DNA from: Alphaproteobacteria bacterium
GTDB lineage: Bacteria; Pseudomonadota; Alphaproteobacteria; JAAXGF01
Assembly (NCBI GenBank): GCA_963555825.3
Contig: CAUVXB020000002.1
Span: 2,432,001 to 2,496,000, forward strand
Length of the DNA: 64,000 nt
Direction of reading: 5' to 3'
Positions 20,909 to 63,503 of this stretch are shown here, in pieces. How positions within the stretch are numbered: position 1 is the stretch's first letter; each line of letters opens with the position of its first letter. The translations under genes were made by a program, and so were the position numbers. A model generated the notes under the pieces. That model was not told the DNA's origin. It did no database searches and saw only the letters and a list, made by a program, of their open reading frames with translations.

Positions 20909-20989
20909 AGGACGGCTCCTTTGTAAGTGATCAGCCAACAGCTACCACTTCTGGCACCTAGATGCCGCGTGGGGCCGTCCACCCCATTA

Positions 20990-32128: not shown

Positions 32129-32256
32129 TAGAGTATTTTGCGGTCACCTAACGGTGACCTGCGCTCAATCTCCGCGCATGCCAATCTTATGGGATCAAAG
32201 CTGGCCGAACGGTCGGCGGCCCCCCTCCTGTCCCAATAAGACTGGCGCGGGCTGGC
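32129..32256 (-). repeat. Structured repeat family S, long copy (inverted)
   Basis: Reverse complement homologous to 6447-6577. Confidence 0.9.
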
Positions 32257-34767: not shown

Positions 34768-34808
34768 CCAGTTCCTCAAGGCATCGAACCATGCGAAACG
34801 GTGTCTGA

Positions 34809-35983: not shown

Positions 35984-36150
35984 TGACACCGTTTTTGGCA
36001 CCGTTTTTCCAGGATTTCCGAACATCTCCGGATTTCCGAACATCTAAGGTGCATTTAAGGTGTCAGACACCTTTTCTCCTGCCGTTTTGCACAAAGACAG
36101 CCATAACGGTGTCTGACACCATTACGGTTTGGCACCAATACGGTTTGATG
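35984..36150. repeat. REP-like cluster of GGTGTC(A/T)GACACC palindromes plus a short direct repeat
   Basis: ggtgtcagacacc 36059-36071, ggtgtctgacacc 36108-36120, a third copy split by IS630; ggatttccgaacatct occurs twice. Confidence 0.7.
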
Positions 36151-46145: not shown

Positions 46146-46460
46146 ATGGACGGCATCCACGATTTGGGCGGCATGCACGGTTTCGGCGCGATCAGCCGCG
46201 CGGTCGACGAGCCGGTCTTCCACGCCGAATGGGAGCGCCGCGTCTTCGCCCTCGACCTGCTGGTCGAGGCCTTCGTCGAGGGCGCCAACATCGACGCCTT
46301 CCGCCACGCGATCGAGCGGCTCGAGCCGGCGACCTATCTCGGCGTGAGCTATTACGAGAAATGGGCGCACGCGCTCGAGACGCTGCTCGTCGACGCCGGC
46401 GTGGTGACGCTCGAAGAAATCGCCGAACGCGTCGCCGCGCTCGAGGAAGGCGGCGGCTGA
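46146..46460 (+). CDS. nthB: Nitrile hydratase beta subunit, N-terminal half
   Basis: MDGIHDLGGMHGFG, FHAEWERR, RHAIER, SYYEKW. Confidence 0.88.
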   Translation: MDGIHDLGGMHGFGAISRAVDEPVFHAEWERRVFALDLLVEAFVEGANIDAFRHAIERLEPATYLGVSYYEKWAHALETLLVDAGVVTLEEIAERVAALEEGGG

Positions 46461-48732
46461 TGGACGCGCTTCCCGCCGCCGCGGTCAAGGCGATCGTCAT
46501 GGAGGGCGGCAGCGCCAGGCGTGATGTCGCCGACGCCGCGGCGCGCTTCAAGCCGGGCGACGCCGTGGTCGCGCGCAACATCCACCCAGCGGGTCACACG
46601 CGGCTGCCGCGCTACGCGCGCGGCAAGCGGGGATTTGGTGCGCCAGGCGAACTGGCAGAAGGTAGGGGGTGCAAGTCCCCCGGAACGAAGGAGTAACCGA
46701 ACCACGTTTCTCCGCGAGCCGTGCGTTGGCTCCCGTGAGGGGGCAGGCGAAGCGTCGGTAGCGGCATGGATGGGCAGGGCTATTGAGCACCGTAAAAGCG
46801 ATGGTCCGGGGTGCCGAGGCTTTCAGATCGGTCGAAGGCAATATCGCAGGCGTCGTTTTGGTGAGATGTCGGCGAGCCCCGCGGTGTCAGAGAACCCATG
46901 CACGTTCGCACGCCTTCTGTTGGGACCCTGGGAGGTCTTCAAACTGCCCCGGTTGTCGTAAAGGGGCCGCGTAGGGAATGGAGAAAACCGAAGCCTATGA
47001 TGAACGGTTTGAAGAAGTCGGATGAGGCCGTACGACCTGTGAGGGCGGCGAACAAGGGAGCGCGAGCTTCTGCGGAGTCGCCGGAGGAAAGGGCCTCAAC
47101 CAAGGGGAAGCCGGATTGCCAAAGCACGCGCCGAACCCAGTGTCGGGTAAGCGTGCCACAGGCGGCGGCCCGGATACGGAAAGCTGCAGAGAGAAACCCG
47201 AAGGAACGTCTCACTGCGCTCTTCCACCACATTACGCCGGACGCGCTCGGTGCGGCCTACTTCGCATTGAAGAAGGACGCAGCAGCCGGTGTCGACGGCG
47301 TTACGTGGGACATGTACGGCGAGGGTCTGGATGAGCGCCTGCTCGACCTGCACCGGCGCCTGCACAGAGGGGGAGCGTACCGGGCGCCGCCGGTTCGGCG
47401 GGTAGAGATACCCAAGCCGGACGGGGGGACACGACCGCTCGGGATCGCGGCGCTGGAGGACAAGGTCGTCCAGAAGGCGGTTGTGGATGTGATCCTGACA
47501 CCGATCTACGAGGTGGTGTTTCTTGGCTTCAGCTACGGGTTCCGACCGGGGCGGGGGGCGCACGATGCGCTCGATGCCCTGGCCTTCGGGATAGAACGGC
47601 GCAAGGTCAGCTGGATAGTCGATGCAGACCTCCGGGCGTACTTCGACACGATCCCGCGGGATTGGTTGATCACGTTCCTAGAGCACCGCATCGGAGACAG
47701 GCGGGTCATCCGTCTGATCCGGAAATGGCTGAACGCCGGCGTCATAGAGAGTGGGTCATGGGCAGATACGGGTATGGGCACGCCGCAGGGGGCAATAGTC
47801 TCCCCCGTCTTGGCGAACGTGTTCCTGCATTACGTGCTCGACTTGTGGTTCCACAAGAAATGGCGCCCGAACGTCCCGGATGGCGAAGCGATCATCGTCC
47901 GTTACGCTGACGATATCGTTGTCGGGTTCCAACACAAGCGGGATGCGGAGCGGTACCTCCGCGACGTTCGGGAGAGGCTGGCCCGGTTCGGTCTCAGCCT
48001 CCACCAGGACAAGACCCGCCTCGTGGAGTTTGGCCGGTTCGCGGATTTGAACCGGCGCCAGCGCGGGGTGGGCAAGCCGGAGACATTCGACTTTCTGGGC
48101 CTCACGCACTATTGCACGACGACCCTGAGAGGACGCTTTCGGCTTGGTCGCAAACCGGTTGCCAAACGGGTCAACAGGACCCTGGCGCGCATCGACGAGG
48201 TGCTTCGCAAGCGCTGGCACCACGACATCTGGGAAGTTGGTAGGTGGCTGGGGCGAGTCTGCAATGGCTGGCTCAACTACTTTGCCGTCCCAGGGTCAGG
48301 CCGGTCCATCCGTGCGTTCCTCCGCAGGCTGCAACGCCGGTGGATGCGGGCGCTACGCCGCCGGTCCCAGCGAGCCCGATTTAGTTGGAAGCGACTGGAG
48401 CGCATGACCGAAATCCTGTGGCCACGCGCCTCCATCCGCCACCCATGGCCGGACCAGCGGTTTGCCGTCAAGCACCCGAGGTAGGAGCCGGATGGTTCAA
48501 CGACCACGTCCGGATCTGCGCGGGGGGTGCGCAGCAATGCGCATTCCTACCGTAACTCGACCGGGTCCACGGCGTCTTCGTCTTCCCCGACACCAACGCC
48601 ATGGGCGGCGGAGAGCAGCCGCACACGCTTTATTCGGTGTGTTTCACGGGCGAGGTGCTGTGGGGCGCCGACGGGCACGCGCGCGACCGCTGCTACATCG
48701 ACCTCTGGGACCGCTACCTCGACCCGGCATGA
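46460..48732 (+). CDS. Nitrile hydratase beta C-terminal SH3 half; exons 46460-46637 and 48557-48732
   Basis: Spliced frame reads [30 protein letters not shown]...YSVCF..LWG..IDLWDRYL. Confidence 0.88.
46638..48556 (+). mobile_element. Group II intron (En-minus, probably bacterial class E)
   Basis: 5' GTGCG, 3' AAC, domain V gagccggatg..cacgtccggatc, domain VI with bulged A; removal restores the host frame. Confidence 0.92.
46997..48484 (+). CDS. ltrA: Group II intron reverse transcriptase/maturase
   Basis: IPKPDG..RPLGI, SYGFRPGR, GTPQG, RYADD, FDFLG, GWLNYF; no HNH domain; start uncertain. Confidence 0.93.
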   Translation: MMNGLKKSDEAVRPVRAANKGARASAESPEERASTKGKPDCQSTRRTQCRVSVPQAAARIRKAAERNPKERLTALFHHITPDALGAAYFALKKDAAAGVDGVTWDMYGEGLDERLLDLHRRLHRGGAYRAPPVRRVEIPKPDGGTRPLGIAALEDKVVQKAVVDVILTPIYEVVFLGFSYGFRPGRGAHDALDALAFGIERRKVSWIVDADLRAYFDTIPRDWLITFLEHRIGDRRVIRLIRKWLNAGVIESGSWADTGMGTPQGAIVSPVLANVFLHYVLDLWFHKKWRPNVPDGEAIIVRYADDIVVGFQHKRDAERYLRDVRERLARFGLSLHQDKTRLVEFGRFADLNRRQRGVGKPETFDFLGLTHYCTTTLRGRFRLGRKPVAKRVNRTLARIDEVLRKRWHHDIWEVGRWLGRVCNGWLNYFAVPGSGRSIRAFLRRLQRRWMRALRRRSQRARFSWKRLERMTEILWPRASIRHPWPDQRFAVKHPR

Positions 48733-49070
48733 GCGCCGCGCCGCCGACCACCGGCGACACCCCCGTCTTCGCCGAACCTTGGCAGGCGCGCGCCTTCGCG
48801 GTCGTCGTCAAGCTCTGTCAGGACGGCCACGCCGAGTGGGACGTATTCCAGCGCCGCCTGATCGCCGAGATCGGCGCGGCCGACGCGGCGGGCGACGACA
48901 CGACCGGTTACTACGAGCACTGGCTGGCCGCCTGCGAGCGGCTGCTCGTCGAGCGCGGCCTGGCGGCGCCCGGCGACCTCGCCCGGCGCAAGGCCGCCGT
49001 CGCCGCCAGCCGTCCGCCGCCGACCCGCGCCGTCGCCAACCCGGTCGTCATCGACCCCGCGCGGCGCTAG
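48729..49070 (+). CDS. Nitrile hydratase accessory protein
   Basis: PVFAEPWQARAFA, YYEHWLAA.ERL; ATGA-coupled to the SH3 gene. Confidence 0.85.
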   Translation: MSAAPPTTGDTPVFAEPWQARAFAVVVKLCQDGHAEWDVFQRRLIAEIGAADAAGDDTTGYYEHWLAACERLLVERGLAAPGDLARRKAAVAASRPPPTRAVANPVVIDPARR

Positions 49071-49197
49071 ATTATTGTGCAACCGACCGGAGTGGATCGG
49101 CATCTACCAGCCTGCGACCGCAGGCCGCCGACCGTTCGGCGAGAGCAAGCGCGGCGATTGAGCGCAGGTCAGCAAAGCTGACCGTACAAAAAGCTCA
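49068..49197 (+). repeat. Structured repeat family S, short copy filling the gap between convergent stop codons
   Basis: ctaccagcctgcgaccgcaggccgccgaccgttcggc..gcgcggcgattgagcgcaggtcagcaaagctgacc. Confidence 0.85.
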
Positions 49198-49941
49198 CGC
49201 CTCGGTCATGAAGTCCTTGAACTGTTCGGCCAGCGCGGCGGCCGAGGCGGCGATCAGGCGTTCGCCGTGCTCGGGGCGGGCGAGCGAGGAATCGGCGCCC
49301 ATACGGCCGTCTGGATAGCGCCGGCGAAAGTCTTGCGCGCCGTAGATTGGCCCGTCGGGCGGCAGCTTGGGGTCGAGCTCGGCCTGCTTGATCGAGCCGG
49401 GGTAGGCGAACTGCGTGACCGAGACCTCGGACGGCGTCGCGTGGCTGCCCTCGGCGCCGGCGTAGAGTTCCCTCGAAATCGCCTGGACTTCCCTGTTGGC
49501 CCACCAGTTGACCAGCCGACAGCGCACGCTGGGCGCGTTGGCGCCTGCGCGTTCGCCGAGCACGGCGTAGGTCTCGAAGAAGGCGGCGTTGATCGTCGCG
49601 ATGTTGCCGCCGTGGCCGTTGAAGAACAGCACGCGCTCGAAACCGTGGCGCGCCAGCGAGACGACGTAATCCGAAATGACCGAGATCAGCGTAGTCGGCC
49701 GGTAGGTGATGGTGCCGGAGAACGCCATGTGGTGCTCGGCCATGCCGACCGAGATGGTCGGCGCGACAAGCACGTCCTCGGCGTCGCCCATGCGCTGGGC
49801 GATGATCTCGGGGCACAGCGCGTCGGTGCCCAGGAGGCCCATCGGCCCGTGCTGTTCGGTCGAGCCGATCGGCACGATGATGCCCTTCGAGCGTTCGAGA
49901 TAAGCGTCGATCTCCTGCCAGGTACGATGCTGCAACTGCAT
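49195..49941 (-). CDS. Creatininase family amidohydrolase
   Basis: [22 protein letters not shown]. Confidence 0.92.
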   Translation of the reverse strand: MQLQHRTWQEIDAYLERSKGIIVPIGSTEQHGPMGLLGTDALCPEIIAQRMGDAEDVLVAPTISVGMAEHHMAFSGTITYRPTTLISVISDYVVSLARHGFERVLFFNGHGGNIATINAAFFETYAVLGERAGANAPSVRCRLVNWWANREVQAISRELYAGAEGSHATPSEVSVTQFAYPGSIKQAELDPKLPPDGPIYGAQDFRRRYPDGRMGADSSLARPEHGERLIAASAAALAEQFKDFMTEA

Positions 49942-50013: not shown

Positions 50014-50088
50014 TCATGTCTGCCTTGCGCCCGAAAGCAGACATCGGGTTACGGCCAACGGTAAAGCCGCTTTTGACCCGAAGCGGCC
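50014..50088 (+). repeat. Hairpin array type L
   Basis: atgtctgccttgcgcccgaaagcagacat...gccgcttttgacccgaagcggc; homologous to 17311-17386. Confidence 0.8.
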
Positions 50089-50274
50089 CAAAGGTTGGAT
50101 TGAGGAGCGGCGGCTGGAATCGACCCCCAACGGACTCACGCATGAGCTTCCTTAAAGCGGACATTCGACTCGCTTCGTCGCAGCTTGGAGGCATCCAACA
50201 CTGACAGCTGAGTCGGCCCCGATTTCCTTGGACACAGAATTGGCTTAATCGAAGTGTCCAAGGAGGACCGGAAC

Positions 50275-50685
50275 ATGACCGACAATTTTGAGAACAAAGT
50301 TGCTGTTGATGGGCCTGTGGTAAACGAGGGCGAGCTTGGCTCGTCCACGTTTTCCCCGGGCCAGGTTTCGCCGGCAGGCCCGCTGGGACTTGGCCAGCGG
50401 TGGACGGTGACGCGCAAGCGTGAGGTTGCCCTGCGGCTTTTGCGTGGCGAGCCGGTGGAACTTTTGTCGCGGCAGTTGGGCGTGGAGATTTTCCGGCTCG
50501 AGCAGTGGCGTGAGAAGGCGATCGCCGGGATCGATGCCTCGCTCAAGGAACGCAAGGGCGATCCGGTGAAGGCGGAACTGGACATCGCCATGAAGCGGAT
50601 CGGGGAGTTGATCATGCAGGTGGAACTGCTGGAGGCCAAGACGGAGACGTCCGGCCCTTTGGGGCGGCGGAGGTCGCGGCGATGA
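50275..50685 (+). CDS. IS3-family OrfA (HTH)
   Basis: RWTVTRKREVALRLLRGE..LSRQLGV; start uncertain. Confidence 0.75.
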   Translation: MTDNFENKVAVDGPVVNEGELGSSTFSPGQVSPAGPLGLGQRWTVTRKREVALRLLRGEPVELLSRQLGVEIFRLEQWREKAIAGIDASLKERKGDPVKAELDIAMKRIGELIMQVELLEAKTETSGPLGRRRSRR

Positions 50686-51593
50686 GTGCCGCCACCTCTC
50701 CCGGCACGGGTTTGGCCTACGGCCTCCAGCGGGTCTGTGCGGCCTGGGGTTTTGCCCGTTCCTCGTTCTACGCCATGAAATCCCGGCAGCAGGCCACCGC
50801 TGAGCGCCCACCAGCAAAGCGCCGGGGACCGAAGCCCTCGATCTCGGACGAGGCTCTGCTGGTGGCCATCGAGGCCGACCTGGAGGCATCCCCCTGGGAG
50901 GGCGAGGGACACCGCAAGGTCTGGGCTCGGCTTCGGGTCTGTCGTGGCATCCGTGTTTCCCGCAAGCGGGGGCTCCGGGTGATGCGCGAGAACAACCTGC
51001 TCTCGCCCCATCGCTGCCGCCGCCGTGGCGGAAATCCCCATGTCGGTGAGATCATCACCCATGCCCCCAACCTCATGTGGGGCACGGACGGCGTTCGGGT
51101 GTTCACGGTGGACGACGGCTGGGGCTGGATATTCACCGCCATCGAGCATTGGAACGCCGAGTGCGTCGGCTGGCATGTGTGCAAGCGAGGCGACCGCTTC
51201 GCCGCCCTTCAGCCGATCTCCATGGGGCTTGCGAGGCTGTATGCCTCGACCTCCGCCGGTGCGGCGCGGGGGCTGGCCTTGCGGATGGATCACGGCTCCC
51301 AGTATCTGTCGGACCACTTCACCAACCAGATCAAGTTCTGGGGCATCCAGCCGTCCTACGCCTTCGTCGAACAGCCCCAGACCAACGGCGTCGCCGAGAG
51401 GTTCAATCGCACGCTCAAGGAACAGATCATCCATGGCCGCATCTACCGCAACATCGCGGAGCTGCGGAACGCCGTCCGCGGGTTCGTCGAACAGTACAAT
51501 GCCCAGTGGATCGTGGAGAAGAACGGCTACCTGAGCCCCGCTCAAGCTCGTCAGGCGTGGCACACCGCGATGTCACTCAGGCCCGCCGCATGA
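50682..51593 (+). CDS. IS3-family OrfB integrase-core transposase
   Basis: PNLMWGTD, DHGSQY, NGVAERFNRTLKE. Confidence 0.9.
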   Translation: MSAATSPGTGLAYGLQRVCAAWGFARSSFYAMKSRQQATAERPPAKRRGPKPSISDEALLVAIEADLEASPWEGEGHRKVWARLRVCRGIRVSRKRGLRVMRENNLLSPHRCRRRGGNPHVGEIITHAPNLMWGTDGVRVFTVDDGWGWIFTAIEHWNAECVGWHVCKRGDRFAALQPISMGLARLYASTSAGAARGLALRMDHGSQYLSDHFTNQIKFWGIQPSYAFVEQPQTNGVAERFNRTLKEQIIHGRIYRNIAELRNAVRGFVEQYNAQWIVEKNGYLSPAQARQAWHTAMSLRPAA

Positions 51594-51628
51594 GACAAAC
51601 TTGTGTCCAAGGAACCGGGTGCGATACA

Positions 51629-52038
51629 TCTCAAGTTCTTTGTACAGTAGTGTGTGGACGGCGGGCGCCATAGCGTCCACATCGAGTGATGTAGCCAAGT
51701 GGAGCCATACACTTTACTCCGGTAACTTTTTGGAAGCGACATCGCTCGAAAAGATGTTAATTTTCAAGAGCAAACGAATTGGACAAGGTAGAGTCCCGAT
51801 GGGGATGGGGGTATGGGAACTGTCAGTTGAAGATGAAGTGGCATGGGGTCATGGTAGTTTGTTAGGTCACTTTGTTTCAGCGATGTTCTATTTACCTAAG
51901 TTTGATCTCAGTATCGCGTATTCCTCCAGCGGAGAAGATGTATCTAAGCAGTCAGCTCCCGGCAGTTACTTGGTGAGAGCGTATCTCGATAGTCGGCCCG
52001 GAAACACTCCGCCGTGTCTTGATCCCGCAGATGAGTGA
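51629..52038 (+). pseudogene. 3' remnant of a serine hydrolase (beta-lactamase-like) gene truncated by IS3
   Basis: TAGAIASTSSDVAKW..LY.G, GMGV, WGHG; low GC; no 5' part on the other side of the IS. Confidence 0.65.
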
Positions 52039-52155
52039 TTCGGCGCGTATTTGCATGGCAAGTTGAGTGTCTGCTCTGAAGAGCTACCATCGATGAGGAG
52101 CGGCAGGTTATGGCCGATTCCGGTCCGTTCAAAATCGTCGGCTGGATGTCGGATG

Positions 52156-52247
52156 ACTTCTCCTCTTGGCTAAAAGCCGACCAAATAGCTGCACCAGAAC
52201 GACGGCCGCTTTCAGGCGACAAGCCGACATGCGAGTCCGCTTGGTGC
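52156..52247 (+). repeat. Hairpin array type R (intact)
   Basis: Gapless homologue of the site split by IS1111. Confidence 0.85.
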
Positions 52248-52459
52248 GATCCGGGACGCCCTCCATCGTCCCGCCCGGCCGGATCGCGCCCAGACGATCG
52301 CGTGAAGCCCCGACCGAAGGAACATCCAGTCCGGATCGCCGGCGGCCGATCGACGTCATCCCGGACCGGACAGGGGTTGACCTGCTGGCAACGACGCCGC
52401 TGTTGTGGTGTGATCGATCGTTGACCAAGATCGACGCGCAACTCTCCGGCGGGCGGTCC

Positions 52460-53668
52460 ATGGAAAACTATCTCAATTCACTGTTGAGCGGGCCGGTGCC
52501 CAGGGAATTGTCATTCCCACCCGAGGAATATGCCGCTCGACTGGCGCGGGTGCGCGAAAAGATGGCGGCGAGCGAGATCGATGTGCTGCTCGTGCACAGC
52601 GCCGTCGATCTTTGTTACCTGACGGGCTATCAGACTCTGTGGCCGGACGCCTATGCCTGCCTCATCGTGCCGCTAGCCGAGCCGCCTTTCATGCAGGTCG
52701 GCGAGATCGAAGCGTCATGCGCGGTGCTGCACGGAGAAATTCAGGATCTTGTGCTGTTTGATTGGGTTGGTGCAGATGCGGTGCCAGGCCAGCTCGCCGA
52801 GCTGCTGGCCGACCGGGGGTTTGCACGGAGCCGGATCGGCGTGCAAGCCGGCCGCATCGAAATGGGCAGTCGTGGTCCCCTCGACGCCAAGCTGTTGGAC
52901 ACCTTGCGCGCGAAACTGGACGATGCGCGTTTCGTGGATGCCACGCTGTTGCTGTTCGATGTGCGGGTCACGAAATCACCTGCCGAACTCGAGCGGATGC
53001 GCGCGGCAGCAAGAATCACCACGGCCGGAATGCGTGCCGCTGTCGACGCCATCGAGCCGGGAAAAACCGAGAACGACGTCGCCGCCTTGGCCGCCAAGGT
53101 CATGATCGAGCGGGGATCAGAGTTCTTCTCGATCGATCCAATCGTCAATGCCGGACACCGTACCGGCTATTTCCACACGACCTTCAAACGCCACCCGATT
53201 TCCGCCGGTGATCCGGTACAGCTTGAATTCGGCGGTTGTTTCCACCGCTACACGGCACCCCTGATGCGGACCGTATTGACCGGCCAACCGAGCGACCTTC
53301 AGCAACGCATGATCGATACCCAGCTCGCGGCTCTTGAAACGCTCTACGGCGCCGTTCGCGCCGGCCGCAGCACACGAGACGTTGCGCATGAGGTTGATGC
53401 TGTGATCGGTTCACTAGATCGCGAAATCTTTCGGTCCGGCCATTTCGGCTATTCGATCGGGCTGGGATTTCCGCCGACCTGGACCGATGGTCCGGCCTAC
53501 CTCTCCGATACAAGGGATTTGGAACTTGCTGTCGGCATGACATTCCACACGCCATTCGCCTGGCGTATCTCCAAGCAATTCGTAATCGGCACGAGCGAAT
53601 CCATTGCCGTCGGCGAAACGGGCTGCGAAATCCTCACCAGCGAAGAGCGTGAGGTTGTCGTCAAGTGA
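52460..53668 (+). CDS. M24 family hydrolase (creatinase / ectoine hydrolase DoeA-like)
   Basis: EEYAARL, YLTGY, KSPAEL, RYTAPLMRT, GYSIGLGFPPTW. Confidence 0.85.
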   Translation: MENYLNSLLSGPVPRELSFPPEEYAARLARVREKMAASEIDVLLVHSAVDLCYLTGYQTLWPDAYACLIVPLAEPPFMQVGEIEASCAVLHGEIQDLVLFDWVGADAVPGQLAELLADRGFARSRIGVQAGRIEMGSRGPLDAKLLDTLRAKLDDARFVDATLLLFDVRVTKSPAELERMRAAARITTAGMRAAVDAIEPGKTENDVAALAAKVMIERGSEFFSIDPIVNAGHRTGYFHTTFKRHPISAGDPVQLEFGGCFHRYTAPLMRTVLTGQPSDLQQRMIDTQLAALETLYGAVRAGRSTRDVAHEVDAVIGSLDREIFRSGHFGYSIGLGFPPTWTDGPAYLSDTRDLELAVGMTFHTPFAWRISKQFVIGTSESIAVGETGCEILTSEEREVVVK

Positions 53669-53750
53669 ACGAGCGTTCGGATGACAAGCCGAAGTACGAG
53701 ACCGCTTAGTGCTTTCAAGCCACGTCGAATCGGGAGCCGCGACACGCCCA
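53667..53750 (+). repeat. Partial hairpin array type R with degenerate module end
   Basis: ttcggatgacaagccga..gaccgcttagtgctttcaagccacgtc is homologous to about 21028-21078. Confidence 0.65.
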
Positions 53751-53751
53751 A

Positions 53752-53909
53752 GCGCGCCGCCCCACTGAATCGCACACCGGAGATATCGTAAATTCCCAGC
53801 CAAATGATCGACCAGTCCGGAGACGCGCGCCCATGCTCTATGTCATCTCCTGCACCGACAAGCCGGACCACGGCCATGTGCGGCGGGAAAACCGCCCCGC
53901 GCATCTCGA
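53752..53909 (+). pseudogene. Degenerate duplicate of yciI upstream region and first ~26 codons
   Basis: atgctctatgtcatctcctgcaccgacaagccggaccacggc is identical to 62468 onward; upstream about 80 nt also similar. Confidence 0.88.
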
Positions 53910-53937
53910 TAAGCTAAATGGGTTGTTTGACGCGAGC

Positions 53938-54744
53938 CTATGCTTCGGGCTTCCGCCCCCAAGCAGCGACGACGGCCATGTCGGCGAACCGGAATGAGGG
54001 GTCGTTGAATGCCTGAATTTGCTTCTCGAAGTCGGCCTCCGGAATGCCGGCGCCGCGGAGAAATTCATCATCCTGAAACGACCTGAGCAGCGTTTCCCAA
54101 TATCTTCCGATGTCGCCACCGCCCTCCCGGACCCAGTTTTTTTCTTCGTGGTCGAAGTCGCTCAATTCCAATCGCTTCACGAGAGCCGGAAGCTTGCGGC
54201 CGATCAACGGATCGAGTTGCAGCGAAGCGACATAAAATGCCAATTCCTTGCGAAAAGTCGCGTCGAAGACCGCAGAGAGGGCATGGTCATGATCGACGGC
54301 GGCAAAATTGGCGTAGTCGCCATCCTCGACGAGCAGCCAACCGCCGGGCTTGATCGCGGCAACCATTTTCGCGAGAGCGCGTTCGGGGCTGGATACATGC
54401 ATCAATAGAAAGCGCGCGTGGACGAGGTCGTAGTTGTCGGCCTCGATTTCGTCTTCGAGGATGTCCAGCTGGCGAATTTCTACGTTCGGCAGGTCGAGAG
54501 CGCGGAGAAACCGTGTATCCATGTCGGCCGCCACCACGGTACCCTTCGCGCCGACCCGCTCGGCCATCCAACGGGCCACCGAGCCGCCCCCGGCACCAAC
54601 CTCCAGGCAACGCCAACCTTCAGAAATACCGAGCCGCGTAAGCCACGAAATCGTCGCCGGATCATTGAGGCTTTCCAGGATGTCGAGACGCCCGCGTTCC
54701 GGTTCGAACGCGACATCCGCCAGCGCATACCCGTCGCTCGTCAT
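53938..54744 (-). CDS. Class I SAM-dependent methyltransferase
   Basis: CLEVGAGGG, YDLVHARFLL, KPGGWL. Confidence 0.88.
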   Translation of the reverse strand: MTSDGYALADVAFEPERGRLDILESLNDPATISWLTRLGISEGWRCLEVGAGGGSVARWMAERVGAKGTVVAADMDTRFLRALDLPNVEIRQLDILEDEIEADNYDLVHARFLLMHVSSPERALAKMVAAIKPGGWLLVEDGDYANFAAVDHDHALSAVFDATFRKELAFYVASLQLDPLIGRKLPALVKRLELSDFDHEEKNWVREGGGDIGRYWETLLRSFQDDEFLRGAGIPEADFEKQIQAFNDPSFRFADMAVVAAWGRKPEA

Positions 54745-54812
54745 CGGTTTCTCCTGCCTCGATCCAAAAATAGACAACCGGCCTATTCACACCGCCAGCC
54801 CTGCCTTGCGAA

Positions 54813-54930
54813 ACGCGACCACGACGTCCTCGGCATCGCCCACGCGTCGCGCGATGACCTCGGGGCATAGCGCGCCTGTGCCGATCAGGCCCATCGGCCC
54901 GTGCTGTTCGGTCGAGCCGATCGGCACGAC
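54813..54930 (-). pseudogene. Degenerate duplicate of the N-terminal part of the creatininase gene
   Basis: ggcccatcggcccgtgctgttcggtcgagccgatcggcacga is identical to 49836-49877 ([13 protein letters not shown]). Confidence 0.88.
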
Positions 54931-55040
54931 GAGCTATCATCGGGTGACACAACCCATATATCGCGACATGCGCTACCGTTGGCAGCGCTACCGGGACCAA
55001 CTCGCGCCAGTCGTGTAACCGGCCAGCATGAACCGGTTGG

Positions 55041-56099
55041 TCAAGCGAACTCCGTTCTGAGAATTCGCGCCGCGGCAACCTCGACCTTCAGCTTCTCGTA
55101 AACCTCGTCCATGTCGACCGGGGCTCCGGATCCGGGCGAGAAGCCGCAATCCGGGTTGAGGGTAATCCGCTCGACGGCGATGCGCCGCGTCGCCGCTTTG
55201 ATCCGCTCGACGACCTCGTCGATGTCATCGACCCTGCCCGGGGTCACATCGACGCAACCGAGGCCGACTTCCAGATCCTCCCGAAGCGCCTCCAAGACAC
55301 CGAACTCGCCCGCCCCGGGGGTCGTGAACTCCATGGTCAGATGGTGCACCTTCAGCCGGTTAAGCTGGCCTATGATGGGCTCGTAGCCGCCGGTATGGCG
55401 GCGCTCTCCGCGCGCCCGGGCGCCGGCGCGCCGGCACAGGTGCAAGGCCAGATGGACGTCCTCGATGCCGTCGATCATCTGGTTGACCATGTCGACGGCG
55501 AAGTCGGCCGCCTGGTCGGGGTCCTCGTATTGGGCGCGAACGTCCGGATCGACGAACAGACAAAGATGCGGGTCGTCCACCTGGATGATATCGGCGCCGG
55601 CGTCCCGAATCAGTTCGACCTCGCGCCGCAGGATGGGGACGCAAGCCGCGACGAATGCCTCGCGGGTGGGATAGGCCGCCGCCGATTTTTCGGCATCCCA
55701 CAACCGCTCACCCAAAAGAGCGGGGGCAGGCAGGGTTGCCTTCACCTTGCGATCGGTAATGCCGCGCAGGAAACGGATCTCCTCGGCGATGAAACCGGGG
55801 GCCCTGGGCTCCAGGCGGCCGGTCACCACGGTTTGGGTTCGACCGTCGGGAAAGCGGCCGATCTCGAAGCCATGGGCGAGCTCGGCGATCACCCCGATAT
55901 AGGATGCGCGCCGCCACTCCCCGTCCGTGACCACGTCCAATCCGGCCCGTTCCTGAAGCGCGACAACGTAGCGCACGGCCGCGTCCATGCGCTGCCTCGT
56001 GGCTTCGGGATCCGTATCGCCTTGGTCCGCGACGAGGTCGCGCACGAAGTCGGAACGCGGCATCGAGCCGACGACCGAGGCGGGAAAGAGGAGGGTCAT
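55041..56099 (-). CDS. Cobalamin-independent methionine synthase II family protein (MetE catalytic-domain type)
   Basis: VGSMPR, TDGEWRR, IIQVDDP, HLC, NPDCGF. Confidence 0.87.
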   Translation of the reverse strand: MTLLFPASVVGSMPRSDFVRDLVADQGDTDPEATRQRMDAAVRYVVALQERAGLDVVTDGEWRRASYIGVIAELAHGFEIGRFPDGRTQTVVTGRLEPRAPGFIAEEIRFLRGITDRKVKATLPAPALLGERLWDAEKSAAAYPTREAFVAACVPILRREVELIRDAGADIIQVDDPHLCLFVDPDVRAQYEDPDQAADFAVDMVNQMIDGIEDVHLALHLCRRAGARARGERRHTGGYEPIIGQLNRLKVHHLTMEFTTPGAGEFGVLEALREDLEVGLGCVDVTPGRVDDIDEVVERIKAATRRIAVERITLNPDCGFSPGSGAPVDMDEVYEKLKVEVAAARILRTEFA

Positions 56100-56666
56100 T
56101 GCGGCGGCCTCCAGAATCGGTTCGCCAGCTCGAGGTCCTGATGTGTGTCGATCTCGCGGTAATGGCCATGGGTATCGACGTGGCTGATGGCGACCCCGTT
56201 TTCGATCATCTCGTCGAACAGATGGATCATCATGGCATCCTCGAAGATGCGCCCCTCGCGGAACTCCCGGCCCGAAAAGCGCTCCCGGCAACGGTGATAA
56301 TGCTCGCGAAGCAACCGCGCCCCGTCGGTCGAGAACTTCGCCACGCCGACGAACTCGCCGTAGGCGTCGGCAGCATCGATGGTCCGGCTCACTTTCCTGA
56401 CCAGGCCGTCCTTCACGGTCAGCTTCTCGGCGTCGCTGGGCGGATGCTGCGAGCGATACTGGTAGTGCGACACCCAGTCCGTGTCAGTCCCAAGGGCGAT
56501 GTCCGCCGTCGCGTCGACGAGGTCACGGATTAACTGGGGCGTGTAGAGGATATCGCAGTAGGAGGTGATGAATGACCGGTCCATCAAGTCCTCCGCATAC
56601 ATCAGCGGTAAGCGTTCGTTCAGGCCGTGGAATCAGCGCGGGCGTTTCCATTCGCCCCGGCCGATT

Positions 56667-57549
56667 TTAGCGATTGAGGGTGCGTTTCCAATCCCGTCGC
56701 AGGGGCCGGAGCCAGACATTCTTTTTAGGCTTGTCGGACTGCCTGTCCCGGTCGTAGCGCCCGCGCCCCTGGGTGGTCCCGACGCGGGTCCAGCCGGAGG
56801 CCTTGTAAACGGCGCCGGTGTAGCGCGGGGTCTCGACGAAGGTCTCGATGAGCACGGGCGTGGTGTTGTAGCGCTCGGTCCAGTCATCGGGCAGGCGCCG
56901 GCGGATGATGGCCAGGATGTGCGAACCCAGGTTGGGGATATTGATCCAGGGCAGGATCAGGAATCTCGGGTTGTCGACCACGAAGGGAAGGTTCTTCTCG
57001 CGCAGTCTGCCGTGTCCATCCGATGAAGTTGTCGCGCGGGGCGAGCTTCCACGCGGCGGTGGAGAAGCCGAGCATGGCGAGCGGCCAGCCGTCGCGGTCG
57101 TGGACGGCGTAGCGCATCTGGGCGCCGACCAGGGTCTTGTATCCGAGATAGTGGTAGCGGGCGACGAACTCGTTCCAGAGCTTGCTCTCCCGGGTGCCGC
57201 GCACGACGGGGCGCAGGTCGAGCGGACGGACCTCGTCGAGGGTCGTCGGGGCCGGGAACAGCGGCGCTTCGGTGTCCGGTCCGAAGACGATCGGCCCGGG
57301 CCGGTTCTGCCGTCCCTGCGGCGCCGGCAGGGCGATCAGGCCGTCCCTGTGCATGGCCAGCATGGCGACCCTGGCCATCATGTCCTTGAGGCCGCCGTCG
57401 GGCTTGAACCAGCCGATGCGCCGGCAGAACTCCTTCGACAGCATATGGCGGTTCAACGGCGGCGGCCCGGCGATCAGCGCGCGCAGCAGCGCCATTTCCC
57501 CGGCGGTGAAGTCGCGGCCGTAATAACGGCACTCGATCGCGCCGGTCAC
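56667..57549 (-). pseudogene. DUF4338 (DruA-like) protein, frameshift near 57005
   Basis: YYGRDFT, LWNEFVARYHYLGY, RDNFIGW | NPRFLILPW, ETFVE, YKASGW..GTTQGRGR; GTG start overlaps the tnpC stop. Confidence 0.75.
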
Positions 57550-60185
57550 GCCGGCGCCATGAGTTCGCGCCTGCGCTCCTCGCTCATCGACCATGGCAGC
57601 CACGGCGACAGGTCGTCCGGTGGTTTGCGATCGTTCTCCGCGCACGCTGCGAGCCACGTGTCCAGCCAGCTCAGGATGTCGATGCCATTCATCGAGAGCG
57701 TGCCCACCACCGAGTACATGATCGCCGTGAACCTGGCGCCGTCCTCGCTGTCGGAACCGAACGACAGCCGTCGCCCTATGGCCGGACCTCGTAACAATCT
57801 TTCGGCGCGATTGTTATCCAGAGGCACCTGCGGGCGGTCGACGAACACGCTCAGCCCTTCGCGATGATTCAGCAGCGAGCGCAGCGCCCTGCCCTGGCGC
57901 GCCTGGTCCGGCAGGCCGACCAACTCCCGGGCGGCCTCCGCGAACAGGCCGTCGAGCGCCGCCTTCAACGCGCCCTGCGCCGCGTCGAACGCTGGCGTCT
58001 GGCGCTTGATCACGGGGTCGTAATGAGCCAACCTCGCCTCGTTCAGGCGGTAGATCGACGCGATCCGCTCGATCCATCCCTGGCACCAGTCCGTCAGTCT
58101 CACCTGGCCGGCCGCGCACTCGACAAAATCGCGGCGCATATGGGACCAACAGAATGCAAGGGTCACTTTGCCCTCGCGAAGGCGAGCGAGTCGCTTGTAG
58201 GCGCTATAGCGATCGCAGACGATGACCGTGTCGAGGAGAGCGTCGCCGAACAGCTTCTGCGCCGCCTCGGCGCTGCGCGAGGGGTCGATATGGAAAGAGA
58301 CCGCGTCATTGCTGACCGAGACCCACAGCCAGGCGCGGCTCGAGCGGTCTTCCCCGCGAAGTTCCTGGACGCGCCAGCTGGTCTCGTCGGCATGGCGCAG
58401 CGCCGCCTTGTTCTGGTGCGCAAGGATCGCCTCGGCCAGCGGCTCGAGCAGCGGCACGAACCGCTTCAGGCTGTCGGCCAGCGTCCCCGGCGAGACCGTC
58501 AGCCCTTGGGCGGACATCCACGCGGCAACGCGGTGCACGGGGCGGAAGCAGGCACAGTGCTCGAACAGGAAGCGTGCCCAGAAGCTGGTCCCGTAGAGCG
58601 TCCTGGGGAACAGCCGCGGCACCGGGGGCGCCGACACTTCCATGGGCGACGACGCGCACTCGCAGGTCCGGCGCCAGCGCGGACGGCGGATCACGCGCTT
58701 GTAGGCCTTGACCTCGATCTCGACGAGGGTGGATTCCTCGGCGCCGTTCGGCGCATAGGGCTGCCCGCACCGGCCGCAGACGCACGCATCCGGCGGCGGG
58801 TTGTGCTCTTCGGTGCGCTCATCGAGCCCGGGCCGCTGGGTGCGGCCGTGGCCGGGCGCGCCGCGCTGCTGGCCGCGCTTGTGTTCCGAGCCCGGCTTGT
58901 CCTGCTGCTCGCTCTTGCGGCCGTAGAGCGCCCTCGACAGCACCGCCCCGGTCGCACGAAGCCTCTCAAGCTGGACTTCCAGCGTCTCGATCCGGTTCCG
59001 CGACGTCTTCGCGCCCTTGCGCAGGCGGGCGTTCTCCCGGGACAGCGACTTGATCGTAGCCTTCTGGCGCCGCGACCTTCGCAGAGCCCTGCGGAGATCG
59101 GCGTCTGCAACGGACAGCGACTTCGACAACGTCTTCCTGACCGCTCGAAGCCCGGCAAGCTCGGCCTCGAGTGCCTTCCTGATCGCGCGAAGCTTGGCAG
59201 GCTGAACCTCCAGCGCCGCTTTCCGGGTCTCCAACTTCCGCATGGTCCTGCGCAGACGGCCGTTGTCCTTGCGCAGCGCCTCGATCGTCGTCTTCTGGCG
59301 CCGCGATCGCCTCAACGCCGCGCGCAGTTGAGCAGCCTCGTCGGACGGCAGCTTCGACAGCGTCGCCCCGGCCGCCCGAAGCTTGGCGAGCCGGGCCTTC
59401 AACTTCTCCTTACCGGCTTTGGACACCTCCAGGGCATGGCGCAGCCAGAAAACCTCGTCGGACAGCGACCGGGCGCGGGCCTCGGCGTCGCCCAGTATCC
59501 TCACCTCCCGGTGGAGCCGAAGGGACTCGCTGGACAGCTTCTTCGCGGTCTCCCTGATGCGCTCCGTCCTCTCCTTCTCCTGGTCGAGGCGCGTGTTCAG
59601 CCGGGCGTTCTCCTTGTCCCGCCGGACCACCTCCTTGTCGAGCCGGCGGAGTTCCGTGCGAAGCGACCTGACGGTCTCCTTCTGGTCCGGGGAAGGCTCC
59701 AGGACGGTGCGCCGCCGGGGCGGAGCAGGCCACGGCCCGGTCGCGCCCTCACGGGCCTTCGATGCCGCCAGGGCCTTGCGCAGCCGGGCGTTCTCCTTGC
59801 GCAGCGCCCCGGCCGTATCGAAGGCCGACGCGATGCCGGCTTCAGAAAGGAGCGTCTCCAGGCGCGCCACTTCCGCCTGCAAGGACGGCACGTCCCTTGC
59901 CGTGCGGCGGGCTTCCTTCGTCTCTTCGACGGCCTCACTCAGCCTGCGCCGGCAGGCCTTGAACCGAGACTTCCACGAACCGCCATCGCTGCGGGCGGCC
60001 ACTTCCGCCCAGCGCAGCTCTTCCGCGCGCGCTTCGGCCGCGTCCGCCCGCGCCCGTTCCCGCTCACACTGTGACCGCCAGTCGCGCGGCGCGTGCTCCG
60101 GCGCCGACACGGGGGACAACCGGACCCCGCCATTACCCTCGACCAGCGTCAGGTTGGTGCCAAAATCCTCGTCCAGAACCACCAT
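57546..60185 (-). CDS. tnpC: IS66 transposase with long N-terminal coiled coil
   Basis: LYGRKSEQ, CxxC zinc finger, HADETSW, CDRYSAY, CWSHMRRDF, DNNRAER; start uncertain. Confidence 0.9.
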   Translation of the reverse strand: MVVLDEDFGTNLTLVEGNGGVRLSPVSAPEHAPRDWRSQCERERARADAAEARAEELRWAEVAARSDGGSWKSRFKACRRRLSEAVEETKEARRTARDVPSLQAEVARLETLLSEAGIASAFDTAGALRKENARLRKALAASKAREGATGPWPAPPRRRTVLEPSPDQKETVRSLRTELRRLDKEVVRRDKENARLNTRLDQEKERTERIRETAKKLSSESLRLHREVRILGDAEARARSLSDEVFWLRHALEVSKAGKEKLKARLAKLRAAGATLSKLPSDEAAQLRAALRRSRRQKTTIEALRKDNGRLRRTMRKLETRKAALEVQPAKLRAIRKALEAELAGLRAVRKTLSKSLSVADADLRRALRRSRRQKATIKSLSRENARLRKGAKTSRNRIETLEVQLERLRATGAVLSRALYGRKSEQQDKPGSEHKRGQQRGAPGHGRTQRPGLDERTEEHNPPPDACVCGRCGQPYAPNGAEESTLVEIEVKAYKRVIRRPRWRRTCECASSPMEVSAPPVPRLFPRTLYGTSFWARFLFEHCACFRPVHRVAAWMSAQGLTVSPGTLADSLKRFVPLLEPLAEAILAHQNKAALRHADETSWRVQELRGEDRSSRAWLWVSVSNDAVSFHIDPSRSAEAAQKLFGDALLDTVIVCDRYSAYKRLARLREGKVTLAFCWSHMRRDFVECAAGQVRLTDWCQGWIERIASIYRLNEARLAHYDPVIKRQTPAFDAAQGALKAALDGLFAEAARELVGLPDQARQGRALRSLLNHREGLSVFVDRPQVPLDNNRAERLLRGPAIGRRLSFGSDSEDGARFTAIMYSVVGTLSMNGIDILSWLDTWLAACAENDRKPPDDLSPWLPWSMSEERRRELMAPA

Positions 60186-60683
60186 GCGCACGACGATAGC
60201 GCATGGCAAATCGCGTTACCAGCAGAAAGACAGCACCTTGTGGGGCCTCGCCTCAACGTGGGAGATGCGCTTGACGGGACCCATTCCACGGCCTGAACGA
60301 ACGCTTACCATCAGCGAGACCAGGATATTGTTGTTCGCCCAATCCCCGTTGCGGCGAAAGGTGAATTGGGGATAGGTCTCGCGCACCACGTGCCCGTTGA
60401 AACCCTCGATGAAGCAGACGTCGTCGATCCCGGCGCCGGCGAAGGCCTCGAGGATCCAGTCCAGAATACGCTTGCCTTGAATTTCGGTGAAGCTCTTATG
60501 CGAGTCGTCGGTGAGCGGGCGGAGACGTTGGCCGCGGCCGGCGCCTATGATGATGGCCCGCATTCTCGGCTATCCGTTTGCCTCGGCTTTTTGCACGATG
60601 CGCAGTCTAAATGTCGATAGGAACATTGTCACGGCTGGAGTCCGGCTACCGGCCGCGCTGTAACCCATCCCCCTAACGAAGGT

Positions 60684-62133
60684 GGAGATGTCCCGGTCGA
60701 TGTTGAAAAGTTGAGGTAGGTGTCGCTCTCCTGGAGCCGTTAGGCTCCGGGTGCTGCAAACCCAAGAGGGAGAACGACACCATGGGAAAGAATATCCGTA
60801 GTTCCAGTAGCCCGCAAGCCCTTGCCACCTCGTTTCCTATGCCGCCGCTGGCAGACGCGATGGACGCAGTCCGTCTCAGCGTGGATCGGTTCTGTCTCCT
60901 GGCCGGGGTCGAGGCCTTGGCCGAGATGATGGAGGAGGACGCCACGACCGTGTGCGGGGCCCGACATCGTCGCCATGGGAACCGTCGGGGTTATCGCTGG
61001 GGCCATACGCAGAGCGAGATCGGCTACCACGGCGGCCGCGTGAAAGTGCAGCGGCCACGGGTTCGCGACCATGCTGGCAAGGAGGTGGGTTTGGAGAGCT
61101 GGCAGGTGCTGCGCGACGGCAACCTGTTGCTCGAGTGGGCGCTCAACCTGATGGTCCTGAACGTGTCGACCCGCAAGTACCACCGCGCGGTCCGTCTGCC
61201 CGAGGGCGACCTGGCGAAAGCGCGTGGCGACGGCACCTCGAAGTCGGCCGTTTCCCGGCGCTTTGTGGCGCTGTCGCGCAAGAAGATGAAGGCCTGGCTC
61301 GCCTCGGACCTCTCGGAGCTCGACCTGCTGGTCATCCAGATCGACGGTCTGCATGTCGGCGACCATGTCTTGGTGGCGGCGATCGGCGTCGATGGCAACG
61401 GCGACAAGCATGTCCTGGCCGTGGTCGAGGGGGCGACGGAGAACACTGTCGTCGTCCAGGCCTTGCTCGACAATCTCCTCGCCAGGGGGCTCGATCCGAC
61501 GCTGCCCCGGCTGTTCATCGTCGATGGCGCGAAGGCGCTCAGCAAAGCGATCCGCAACACCTTCGGTGTGGCCGCCGCCATCCAGCGCTGCCAGGTCCAC
61601 AAGGGCCGTAACATCATCGAGCGCCTGCCCCTGCATTTGCATGCGAGCGTCAAGAAGGCGCTCCGTCAGGCCTGGGACCAGGACGACGCAGACAAGGCCG
61701 AACGGCTGCTGCGCAACCTGGCCCGGCGTCTGGAGCATGAGGAACCGGGCGTCTCGGGCAGCATCCTGGAGGGGCTGGACGAGATCCTCACCGTCATCCG
61801 CCTCGGCCTGCCGCACGAACTCCGGCGCTCGCTTGCCTGCACCAACATCATCGAGAACGCGCTCGGCACGGTGCGTCAGGTCACCCGCAACGTCAAACGC
61901 TGGAGGAACGCCGAGATGGCGCTCAGATGGACCGCCGCCGGCTTGCTGGAGGCCCAGAAGACCTTCCGTCGCCTCAAGGCCTATCGTCAGCTGCCCATAC
62001 TCCGAAACGCTCTCCAGGAGCACTTGAGAAAGGCTCACGCCGACAGTGCCATTGAAACCATCATGAAGGCAGCATAGCCTCATCAACCAGCGATGTCTGC
62101 CCCACGAATTTCAACAGCGATAGGGACATCGCC
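60684..62133 (+). mobile_element. IS256-family element
   Basis: TIRs ggagatgtccc / gggacatcgcc; 8-bp TSD acgaaggt (60676-60683, 62134-62141). Confidence 0.9.
60782..62077 (+). CDS. IS256 (Mutator-like) transposase
   Basis: IQIDG, FIVDG.K.L, QRCQVHK.RN, TNIIE. Confidence 0.92.
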   Translation: MGKNIRSSSSPQALATSFPMPPLADAMDAVRLSVDRFCLLAGVEALAEMMEEDATTVCGARHRRHGNRRGYRWGHTQSEIGYHGGRVKVQRPRVRDHAGKEVGLESWQVLRDGNLLLEWALNLMVLNVSTRKYHRAVRLPEGDLAKARGDGTSKSAVSRRFVALSRKKMKAWLASDLSELDLLVIQIDGLHVGDHVLVAAIGVDGNGDKHVLAVVEGATENTVVVQALLDNLLARGLDPTLPRLFIVDGAKALSKAIRNTFGVAAAIQRCQVHKGRNIIERLPLHLHASVKKALRQAWDQDDADKAERLLRNLARRLEHEEPGVSGSILEGLDEILTVIRLGLPHELRRSLACTNIIENALGTVRQVTRNVKRWRNAEMALRWTAAGLLEAQKTFRRLKAYRQLPILRNALQEHLRKAHADSAIETIMKAA

Positions 62134-62280
62134 ACGAAGGTGGCAAACTCACCACGCGTCACCGCTTAATTTTCGAGCGCGATCGATGCAGCGCAACGTC
62201 AAACGGTTACGATGCGTGGCACTTCGAAGGCAGACCGACCTGAGATAATTGAATTCGGCTGGCGCCAGCGCGGCAACTCA

Positions 62281-62370
62281 ATGTCTCCTCACTGGCTATT
62301 CGCGGACCTAATGGCCGCGCCTATCGAATGACCGCTTTCGGGCGGTAAGCTGACCCACGAAATCGCTTCC
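62281..62370 (+). repeat. Hairpin array type R (diverged)
   Basis: tctcctcactggcta..gac..atggc.gc.cc..cgaatgaccgctttcgggcggtaagctgac resembles 52156 and the rebuilt IS1111 site. Confidence 0.65.
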
Positions 62371-62467
62371 TATTTTCCGAAACGCGCCGCGCCGCCCCGC
62401 TGGATCGCGCGCGGGCGATCGCGTAGAGTCCCGGCCCAAGAACCAACCAGCCCGGAGACGCGCCACC

Positions 62468-62752
62468 ATGCTCTATGTCATCTCCTGCACCGACAAGCCG
62501 GACCACGGCGCGGTGCGGCAGGAAAACCGCCCCGCGCATCTCGACTATCTCAAGGGGAAAGGCGCCACGCTGCGCCTCGCCGGGTCCTATACCGCCGACG
62601 ACGGCGAGGCCGTTTTGGGCAGCCTGATCGTCGTCGACGTCGCCGACCGCGCGGCCGCCGAGGCAATCGCCGCGGGCGACCCTTACGCCAATGCCGGGCT
62701 GTTCGAGAGCGTCGAGATCCGCGCTTTCCGCTGCGCCATTGGCGAGCTTTAG
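62468..62752 (+). CDS. yciI: YciI family protein
   Basis: DKP...R...RPAHLDYL, GSLIV, DPY..AGLF. Confidence 0.9.
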   Translation: MLYVISCTDKPDHGAVRQENRPAHLDYLKGKGATLRLAGSYTADDGEAVLGSLIVVDVADRAAAEAIAAGDPYANAGLFESVEIRAFRCAIGEL

Positions 62753-62885
62753 GGTTTTGTGCGGTCGGTCGCGCTCGGTCGAAATCTACCAGCCCGCGAC
62801 TGCGGGCCGCCGACCGTTCGGCGGAAGCAAGCGCGGCGATTGAGCGCAGGTCATCTTTACGCGTAAAGATGACCGGACGAAACAA
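62750..62885 (+). repeat. Structured repeat family S, short copy
   Basis: Homologous to 49068-49197; begins at the yciI TAG stop. Confidence 0.85.
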
Positions 62886-63313: not shown

Positions 63314-63370
63314 CGACCGGGCGCTGCGTCCACATCCCTCGCGTCAGCGACATTGTAGTGCTGGATTAAA

Positions 63371-63503
63371 CCAGCCTGCGCCAGTCTTAATGGGACAAGA
63401 GGGGGGCCGCCGACCGTTCGGCCAGCTTTGATTCCATAAGATTGGCATGCGCGGCGATTGAGCGCAGGTCATCTTTGACGCGCGTAAAGATGACCGCACA
63501 AAG
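63371..63503 (+). repeat. Structured repeat family S, long copy
   Basis: Homologous to 6447-6577. Confidence 0.9.

Follow-up and report, generated by a model that had tools for sequence, protein, structure and literature searches.

Tripartite repeat sites bounding a 12.3-kb insertion in an alphaproteobacterial genome: candidate sites of gene-cassette exchange with counterparts in Bradyrhizobium plasmids

A 64,000-nt stretch of an alphaproteobacterial genome (contig CAUVXB020000002.1, positions 2,432,001 to 2,496,000; hereafter the window; G+C content 66%) holds, between the divergent host genes for creatininase and YciI, 12.3 kb of cargo genes punctuated by short repeats that recur at 17-21 kb. 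How did this DNA come to lie between two host genes, and what are the repeats? The initial annotation, made from the sequence alone, regarded them as hairpin repeats and the region as the product of serial cassette accumulation. The present analysis traces the repeats to a three-dyad unit found also in Bradyrhizobium plasmids, where one exchange of cargo ends exactly at its spacers.

Insertion between the Creatininase and yciI Genes

The sample of relatives comprised at least 80 GTDB loci (1.25 Mb), none above 70% identity among the matches listed. The best matches of the window creatininase and YciI belong to uncultured Alphaproteobacteria, and close relatives are known as proteins, with creatininase and YciI at 87-94% amino acid identity. 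In nine of the 80 listed loci yciI lies near the creatininase gene; the two are directly adjacent and divergent in L001, L002, L003, and L007 (spacers of 425, 318, 174, and 130 bp, respectively), and a fifth locus among the matches listed has one gene between them. Since the genes adjoin in four relatives, the 12.3 kb separating them in the window is an insertion. Homology to the spacers of relatives stops about 15 nt before the leftmost repeat (L50) and restarts about 12 nt after the rightmost one (R62); the breakpoints thus lie no further than about 15 nt from the outer arrays. None of the four spacers contains an array of the kind described below. The cargo genes of 50-62 kb are present in none of the 80 listed loci, apart from one M24 homologue (34%), and their G+C content at third codon positions (GC3) is 0.48-0.83 versus 0.86-0.94 in seven host genes, which is consistent with acquired DNA.

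The distance from gpsA to the creatininase gene, 40 bp to 3.5 kb in L001, L003, and L032, amounts to 48 kb here (window 1296-49195), and by this measure the whole window may be an expanded hotspot. A metagenomic protein (P0190) consists of an unrelated N-terminus fused to a truncated YciI that is 94% identical to that of the window, which suggests that broken yciI copies occur in relatives.

Structure of the Sites

Self-BLAST of the window related positions 50014-50086 to 17311-17383 (79% identity over 73 nt, E 2e-10), 52185-52247 to 21002-21064 (81%), 53673-53730 to 21025-21082 (79%), and 52159-52335 to 62284-62456 (69%). All matches are on one strand, in agreement with the common orientation reported earlier for these arrays and those at 17-21 kb. 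Local-alignment z against shuffles was 8-30 for the repeat matches. A symmetric 10-n-10 motif chosen by eye had six matches in the window, all of them in arrays, versus 1.3 in shuffles; the shuffles permuted 2-nt chunks, which is an approximation.

The unit is about 119 bp long and consists of dyad a (11-6-11), dyad b (11-7-11) placed 45-46 bp on, and dyad c (11-6-11) a further 46-47 bp on. The spacers are nearly fixed, TGGCCC or TGGCAC (TGGCMC) in a and TGACCC in c; all three a sites of the window, those of R52 and R62 among them, have TGGCTA. In total, 24 a, 29 b, and 23 c dyads were gathered with fixed spacing, including 19 complete units. The left repeat (L) is the b-c part of this unit and the right repeat (R) its a-b part. 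Consequently, the two arrays of the initial annotation are real as repeats, not as separate kinds: both are pieces of one site. The partial R that it placed at 53667 is present too (profile E 5e-6), but as nothing more than a decayed b dyad with the end segment (site-matrix score -4.6). A tail of about 65 nt after each R was considered as a part of the repeat and rejected, as it aligns to the native yciI promoter of relatives; the resident copy matches the spacers of L003 and L005.

The outer, cargo-facing arms of a and c correlate with the b arms at r 0.86-0.92 and the inner, linker-facing arms at 0.57-0.74 (permutation p < 1/2000). Dyads a and c are related in inverted orientation and have different 6-bp spacers. 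Paired-site matches numbered 88 (both strands counted) versus one in 624 kb of shuffled DNA, and three versus none in shuffled DNA for the 351 kb that contributed no units to the matrices. The matrix scan found no paired sites in L082, L084, L093, L095, or L098. The matrices were iterated and window sites served as seeds, so that window scores are not independent. For the later element, swap, and fold tests, a and c units were sorted by spacer, and misregistered or ambiguous six-bp units were dropped, which reduced 47 to 45.

The Bradyrhizobium leads came from short BLAST queries at E 10, for one of which 225 of the 226 matches were chance phage-tail matches; the 196-nt stretches of L50 and R52 gave no match against plasmids at E 0.01. 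In Bradyrhizobium plasmids the same motifs follow small genes, and multi-cassette arrays with complete internal a-b-c units are present in L083 and L099. Genes encoding ABC substrate-binding proteins and adenylate cyclases are recurrent cargo between complete a-b-c sites (L083:20104-24299, L099:19982-34161).

As for the presumed hairpins, RNAalifold predicted no pairs for an alignment of 23 sites, and the complementarity of the arms of a dyad does not exceed that of shuffled arms (p 0.88, 0.26, and 0.79). The designation as hairpin repeats is therefore not sustained, and a single long attC-like hairpin was rejected on the same grounds. The arrays have no match in Rfam, the sole gathering-level match in the window being a group II intron domain at 46672-46896. 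No description of the site family was found in a literature search that covered few subscription papers and neither ISfinder nor TnPedia; the family is probably undescribed.

Exchange at the Spacers

Eight related plasmid stretches were compared. The position occupied by ABC-binding-protein genes in L083 and L085 holds amidase, DUF302, and TetR genes in L086-L089. Identity stops with the final base of the c spacer and restarts with the first base of the a spacer, in both cases 0 nt from the edge. The left site of this swap was known by BLAST from L50 of the window before the breakpoint was. A second set of related plasmids for such a comparison was not found. Between unrelated plasmids, homology is confined to the linker and extends from the a spacer as far as the c spacer (94% over 99 nt and 89% over 89 nt); two loci of this comparison had been fetched for matching that linker. 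The swap and the spacer-bounded homology fit what exchange by a tyrosine recombinase would produce.

Insertion sequences (ISs) are found at the same positions. Ends of related IS110/IS1111 elements abut the a spacer in R21 of the window, in L096, and in L099, and a duplicated 1.6-kb IS, presumably IS1182-like, starts at a c spacer. The targeting of attC by IS1111 is a parallel to these insertions at spacers. Another parallel is IS1202, which targets pdif according to PMC13141974 / 10.1101/2022.12.17.520857.

Candidate Enzyme

In locus L096, a gene encoding a 308-aa tyrosine recombinase is followed by that of an IS91-type transposase, and a full a-b-c unit lies just upstream. The recombinase family occurs in 239 plasmid records; eight of the 60 listed were examined, which together with L096 and a second copy in L100 gives ten loci. 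In seven of the ten, the left end of the element lies 2 nt from a site spacer at p < 0.05, in a register set by eye. Both element ends were found in four loci, and the rejoined empty site was significant in two of these. Beyond Bradyrhizobium and the window organism, half-sites were found by recombinase elements in five other genera. On one plasmid, two left ends of recombinase elements that are 99% identical (L092:32174-32699 and L105:3828-4351) both start at an a spacer.

The R-K-H-R-H-Y motifs of the recombinase are intact. Its nearest solved relatives are XerD, XerA, and IntI4, and, by a gap in the profile match, it lacks the IntI insertion. According to 10.1101/542381, the IS91 recombinases are the closest homologues of IntI and have no such insertion. 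The likeliest enzyme would thus be an IntI-related recombinase encoded together with a Y2 transposase in IS91-type elements and acting in trans. No tyrosine recombinase was found among the 70 open reading frames (ORFs) of the window that were scanned or by tblastn of the whole window, and in the annotations covering 150 kb of a single Bradyrhizobium plasmid and 50 kb of pNGR234a none stands beside arrays.

Origin of the 12.3 kb

A copy of the yciI promoter (about 65 nt) follows each of the three R ends, the copies being 68-78% identical pairwise. The second copy continues into 90 nt of yciI, and a 119-nt fragment of the creatininase gene lies behind the methyltransferase gene. Of the 25 differences in these two fragments, 14 affect third codon positions (p 0.016). 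The creatininase fragment matches the orthologues P0001 and P0002, and not the resident gene, at three residues; overall identities are 34 and 33 (P0001 and P0002) versus 32 (resident) of 39. Judged from these comparisons, the internal fragments lean to donor alleles.

There is one L for three R ends, and only the serine-hydrolase segment (L50 to R52) is a clean c-to-a cassette. To the left of the M24 gene, and in the interval from the methyltransferase gene to the MetE-like gene, no c site scores above the background level of the site matrix, and no a site does so before the 53667 copy. The idea of serial cassette accumulation survives in one respect, as the repeats appear to act as sites of a cassette system. 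That each cargo was added as a cassette is not supported; each R also precedes yciI-promoter DNA, which plain insertion of a cassette would not copy.

The proposed model has two layers. The sites would be double-stranded, of the tyrosine-recombinase type, and built as the fixed unit a-b-c, with arms alternating as X/Y ... Y/X, like C/D ... D/C in pdif, since the cargo-facing arms match the b arms and the linker-facing arms differ. Cargo would be bounded by a c site on one side and the following a site on the other, and crossovers within the spacers (c x c or a x a) would add, remove, or exchange it; b would probably serve for accessory binding. At the window locus, one platform (b-c ... a-b) would have landed between the divergent creatininase and yciI promoters, and the 12.3 kb would have grown by unresolved single crossovers, at the a site or by RecA, with DNA of the same locus bearing other cargo. 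Such stacking would give the three junctions of R and yciI promoter and fits the single L, the a spacer common to R52 and R62, and the gene fragments inside; deletions and three ISs would have eroded the stack. For dif modules, a single exchange has been modelled as a cointegrate formed at one spacer pair and resolved at the other (PMC13141974 / 10.1101/2022.12.17.520857); failure of the second step would lead to a stack of R junctions like the one found here. RecA-driven or repeat-driven duplication is another possible source of the stack. The site arrangement, the insertion, the one spacer-exact swap in plasmids, the spacer-bounded linker homology, and the repeated host DNA are observed, whereas which enzyme acts, what b does, and how the stack formed are inferred; the model of cassette-exchange sites within a stacked, decaying locus is, taken whole, considered more probable than not.

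A number of observations weigh against it. Paired sites occur almost solely in Bradyrhizobium plasmids and the window, the 80 listed GTDB loci giving two weak matches versus none. The clean spacer swap is one of 18 distinct synteny breaks, and its right site was recognised after the breakpoint; another break is IS110-linked, 2 nt off the spacer on one side, and 16 are unrelated to the sites, being ordinary IS insertions or deletions. Three of the ten recombinase loci have no half-site, in a register chosen by eye, and neither the recombinase nor a Y2 gene is present in the window or the 80 listed loci. Since linkage does not show catalysis, the element could equally parasitise the sites, as IS1111 appears to. 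The inner arms covary within elements (5.26 versus 4.21 pairs, p 0.008, n = 19, not independent), which leaves some room for a long fold. Finally, the excess of third-position differences is expected after an old in-place duplication as well.

Strict serial accumulation, in which all cargo of 50-62 kb entered successively as gene-plus-site cassettes in integron fashion, would agree with the single orientation of the sites and with the multi-cassette arrays of L083 and L099, and a x a integration of circles would yield one L and several R. However, the internal sites are of the terminal type (a-b without c) and each precedes yciI-promoter DNA, fragments of host genes are found within the region, and the M24 and methyltransferase genes are without flanking c and a sites, which makes this route unlikely. 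A rolling-circle mechanism of the IS91/HUH kind, with a Y2 transposase cutting at the sites and one-ended transposition carrying host DNA, hence the variable copies on the yciI side, is rated as rather unlikely. In its favour, the left end of the element starts, 2 nt outside the spacer, with a GAAC-like tetranucleotide, after which comes a short palindrome, and one-ended transposition is described as mobilising neighbouring DNA (PMC13181058) and has been put forward as the source of tandem repeats in a sphingomonad (PMC5737581); yet both ends of the swap coincide with spacer edges of 11-6-11 dyads, no hairpin is conserved, the cargo modules have no oriIS/terIS-like ends, and the window has no Y2 gene.

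The repeats could also be passive, i.e., decayed ends of ISs or of miniature inverted-repeat transposable elements (MITEs), or protein-binding sites, the cargo having come by other routes and the stack being an old in-place duplication. Direct repeats that resemble repetitive extragenic palindromes (REPs) and are 81% identical (49068-49171 and 62750-62853) flank the segment from creatininase to yciI and could have mediated such a duplication, a similar diverged 5' fragment with foreign DNA and no site is found at 3219-5425, and the sites are degenerate, with a mean column identity of 51%. The fixed 46-bp spacing, the conserved spacers, the spacer-exact swap, and the spacer-bounded homology are not expected of debris, and this explanation is quite unlikely, although in-place duplication may well explain the stack even with active sites. 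An assembly artefact or strain chimera, to which the apparently uncultured host and the repeated host segments might point, is scarcely credible: the copies are 68-87% identical rather than near-identical, the ISs have proper target duplications, and the junctions are not at shared identical sequence.

Features of the Region and Other Observations

Gene identities were assigned by Pfam and NCBIfam (Table 1). They confirm the order of genes from creatininase to yciI and the three ISs given in the initial annotation.

Table 1. Features of the insertion, its host anchors, and the sister module (window coordinates).
Feature	Position	Strand	Remarks
Sister module, left end	17252-17387	+	18-bp terminal inverted repeat, b and c dyads
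Sister module, right end (R21)	18433-21100	+	a dyad cut at spacer by IS110/IS1111, then b dyad, end segment, inverted repeat
Creatininase, host gene, left anchor	49195-49941	-	Pfam PF02633; divergent neighbour of yciI in relatives
L50	50016-50090	+	b dyad 50016-50044 (7-bp spacer), c dyad 50063-50090 (spacer TGACCC); no a dyad
Additional c-like dyad	50110-50137	+	47 bp past c; matrix score 12.7; weak, was a seed
IS3-family element	50214-51630	+	Ends approximate; adjoining cargo gene without its 5' part
Serine hydrolase (beta-lactamase fold), 3' remnant	51643-52038	+	PF00144 E 5e-5; GC3 0.48
R52	52100-52250	+	a-like extra dyad 52100, a dyad 52156-52183 (TGGCTA), b dyad 52202-52230, end segment; no c
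yciI promoter copy 1	52271-52335	+	78% to resident copy
M24 / ectoine-hydrolase-like (DoeA-like) gene	52460-53668	+	No c site left, no a site right
R53	53667-53752	+	Decayed b dyad and long end segment common with R21
yciI promoter copy 2 and yciI 5' fragment	53753-53922	+	ATG 53833; 84% overall to 62388-62557
S-adenosylmethionine (SAM) methyltransferase	53938-54744	-	Between yciI and creatininase fragments
Internal creatininase fragment	54814-54932	-	Codons ~21-60; 87% nucleotide identity to resident gene
MetE-like gene	55041-56099	-	Cobalamin-independent synthase domain
NTP transferase, two halves	56096-60563	-	Split by IS66 element 56608-60308
IS256-family element	60686-62133	+	
R62	62282-62373	+	a dyad (TGGCTA), b dyad 62328-62356; no c
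Resident yciI promoter and yciI, right anchor	62385-62752	+	Promoter aligns to native spacers of L003 and L005

The target duplication is 8 bp for the IS66 element and 9-10 bp for IS256, and none clean was found for the IS3-family element. The transposase of the IS66 element is extended at its N-terminus by a long coiled coil, and the element also carries a DruA-like passenger ORF (56884-57657).

In the sister module, the IS110/IS1111 element itself holds an IS630; the IS630 copies at 18669-19864 and 34788-35984, one of them within that element, are 99% identical. The 18-bp terminal inverted repeat of the module (17252-17271 and 21080-21099) recurs in four other genomes, at L044:10047, L081:33356, L108:6001, and L109:6001. 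It may be a means by which the platform itself moves; in two plasmid loci no matching transposase adjoins it.

Another family of repeats, REP/MITE-like, is located at 6440-6551, 32129-32256, 49102-49171, 62784-62853, and 63363-63474; two of its copies flank creatininase to yciI as the 81% direct repeats mentioned above, and a similar sequence was seen by eye in the L002 spacer. The segment 3219-5425 comprises a diverged 5' fragment of an epimerase gene, low-GC DNA, and an HTH_38/rve transposase gene, which we take to be IS30-like, followed by the intact epimerase gene; no a, b, or c sites are present. A group II intron (46229-48730; reverse transcriptase at 46898-48484; Rfam D1-D4-6 at 46672-46896) appears to split the gene of the nitrile hydratase beta subunit.

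Comparison with Known Systems

Res sites of serine resolvases comprise three dyads in about 120 bp. Unlike in these, crossovers here appear to occur at two outer subsites with 6-bp spacers, and no resolvase gene lies alongside. REPs, including CGTC- and GTAG-tagged palindromes, share with the sites an intergenic position, the presence of dyads, and abundance in Alphaproteobacteria (PMC3733652). However, REPs are tagged stems of 20-40 bp, whereas the sites are three-dyad units of about 119 bp at recombination junctions; the CGTC tag precedes L50 and not L17, and no stem covariation was found. Elements of the IS91 family that have a tyrosine recombinase gene upstream (ISMno24 type, a label from record annotation) have left ends in register with the sites in seven of the ten loci noted above, but none is present in the window; a link of these elements to a cassette site was not found in the literature searched.

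The dif modules of Acinetobacter (pdif or xrs, XerCD) are described as having 11-6-11 sites of alternating polarity and an enzyme in trans, short-linker and cargo types of modules, replacement of a single module with the spacer kept on each side, and sites hit by specialised ISs (PMC13141974, 10.1101/2022.12.17.520857). Of these features, 11-6-11 sites flanking gene modules, inverse alternating polarity, and one spacer exchange (in Bradyrhizobium plasmids) were found here; the two module types and the ISs at the sites have counterparts as well, and the candidate enzyme would likewise act in trans. In contrast to dif modules, the sites have near-fixed spacers and a central 11-7-11 dyad at a fixed linker distance, and their arms match XerD at 3.5-4.1 of 11 positions and XerC loosely at 4.4-5.4 of 11, relative to the pdif arms of PMC13141974, which may differ from alphaproteobacterial dif.

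With integrons and attC-site clusters that have no integrases (CALIN), the system shares arrays of accessory genes punctuated in one orientation by repeats of about 120 bp, and the candidate enzyme belongs to the integron-like subgroup of recombinases (10.1101/542381). Unlike in integrons, there is no intI and no conserved fold, and crossovers would take place at two different subsites; the attC core RYYYAAC...GTTRRRY is present in none of the six window arrays on either strand. This absence of integron features agrees with the initial annotation, which expected a negative result from IntegronFinder. The IntegronFinder paper reports integrons in none of the 243 alphaproteobacterial genomes that it surveyed, a lack that it calls extremely puzzling (PMC4889954).

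It is tentatively suggested, as a possibility somewhat short of an even chance, that, next to integrons and dif modules, the sites represent a third system of bacterial gene cassettes, with tripartite double-stranded sites, two non-interchangeable spacers, and natural cassette exchange, run in trans by an IS91-borne sister group of integron integrases, common enough to be attended by its own site-targeting ISs, and filling the role of integrons in Alphaproteobacteria. A widespread site-specific cassette system of this kind would offer a testable answer to the missing alphaproteobacterial integrons. It would also show what the IS91-borne recombinases closest to IntI do, with a bearing on the origins of integrons, explain the recurrent small-gene arrays in Bradyrhizobium plasmids, and could supply a recombinase with two natural non-interchangeable sites. 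The window locus itself would be a decayed, stacked example, its worth lying in the lead that it gives to the site family.

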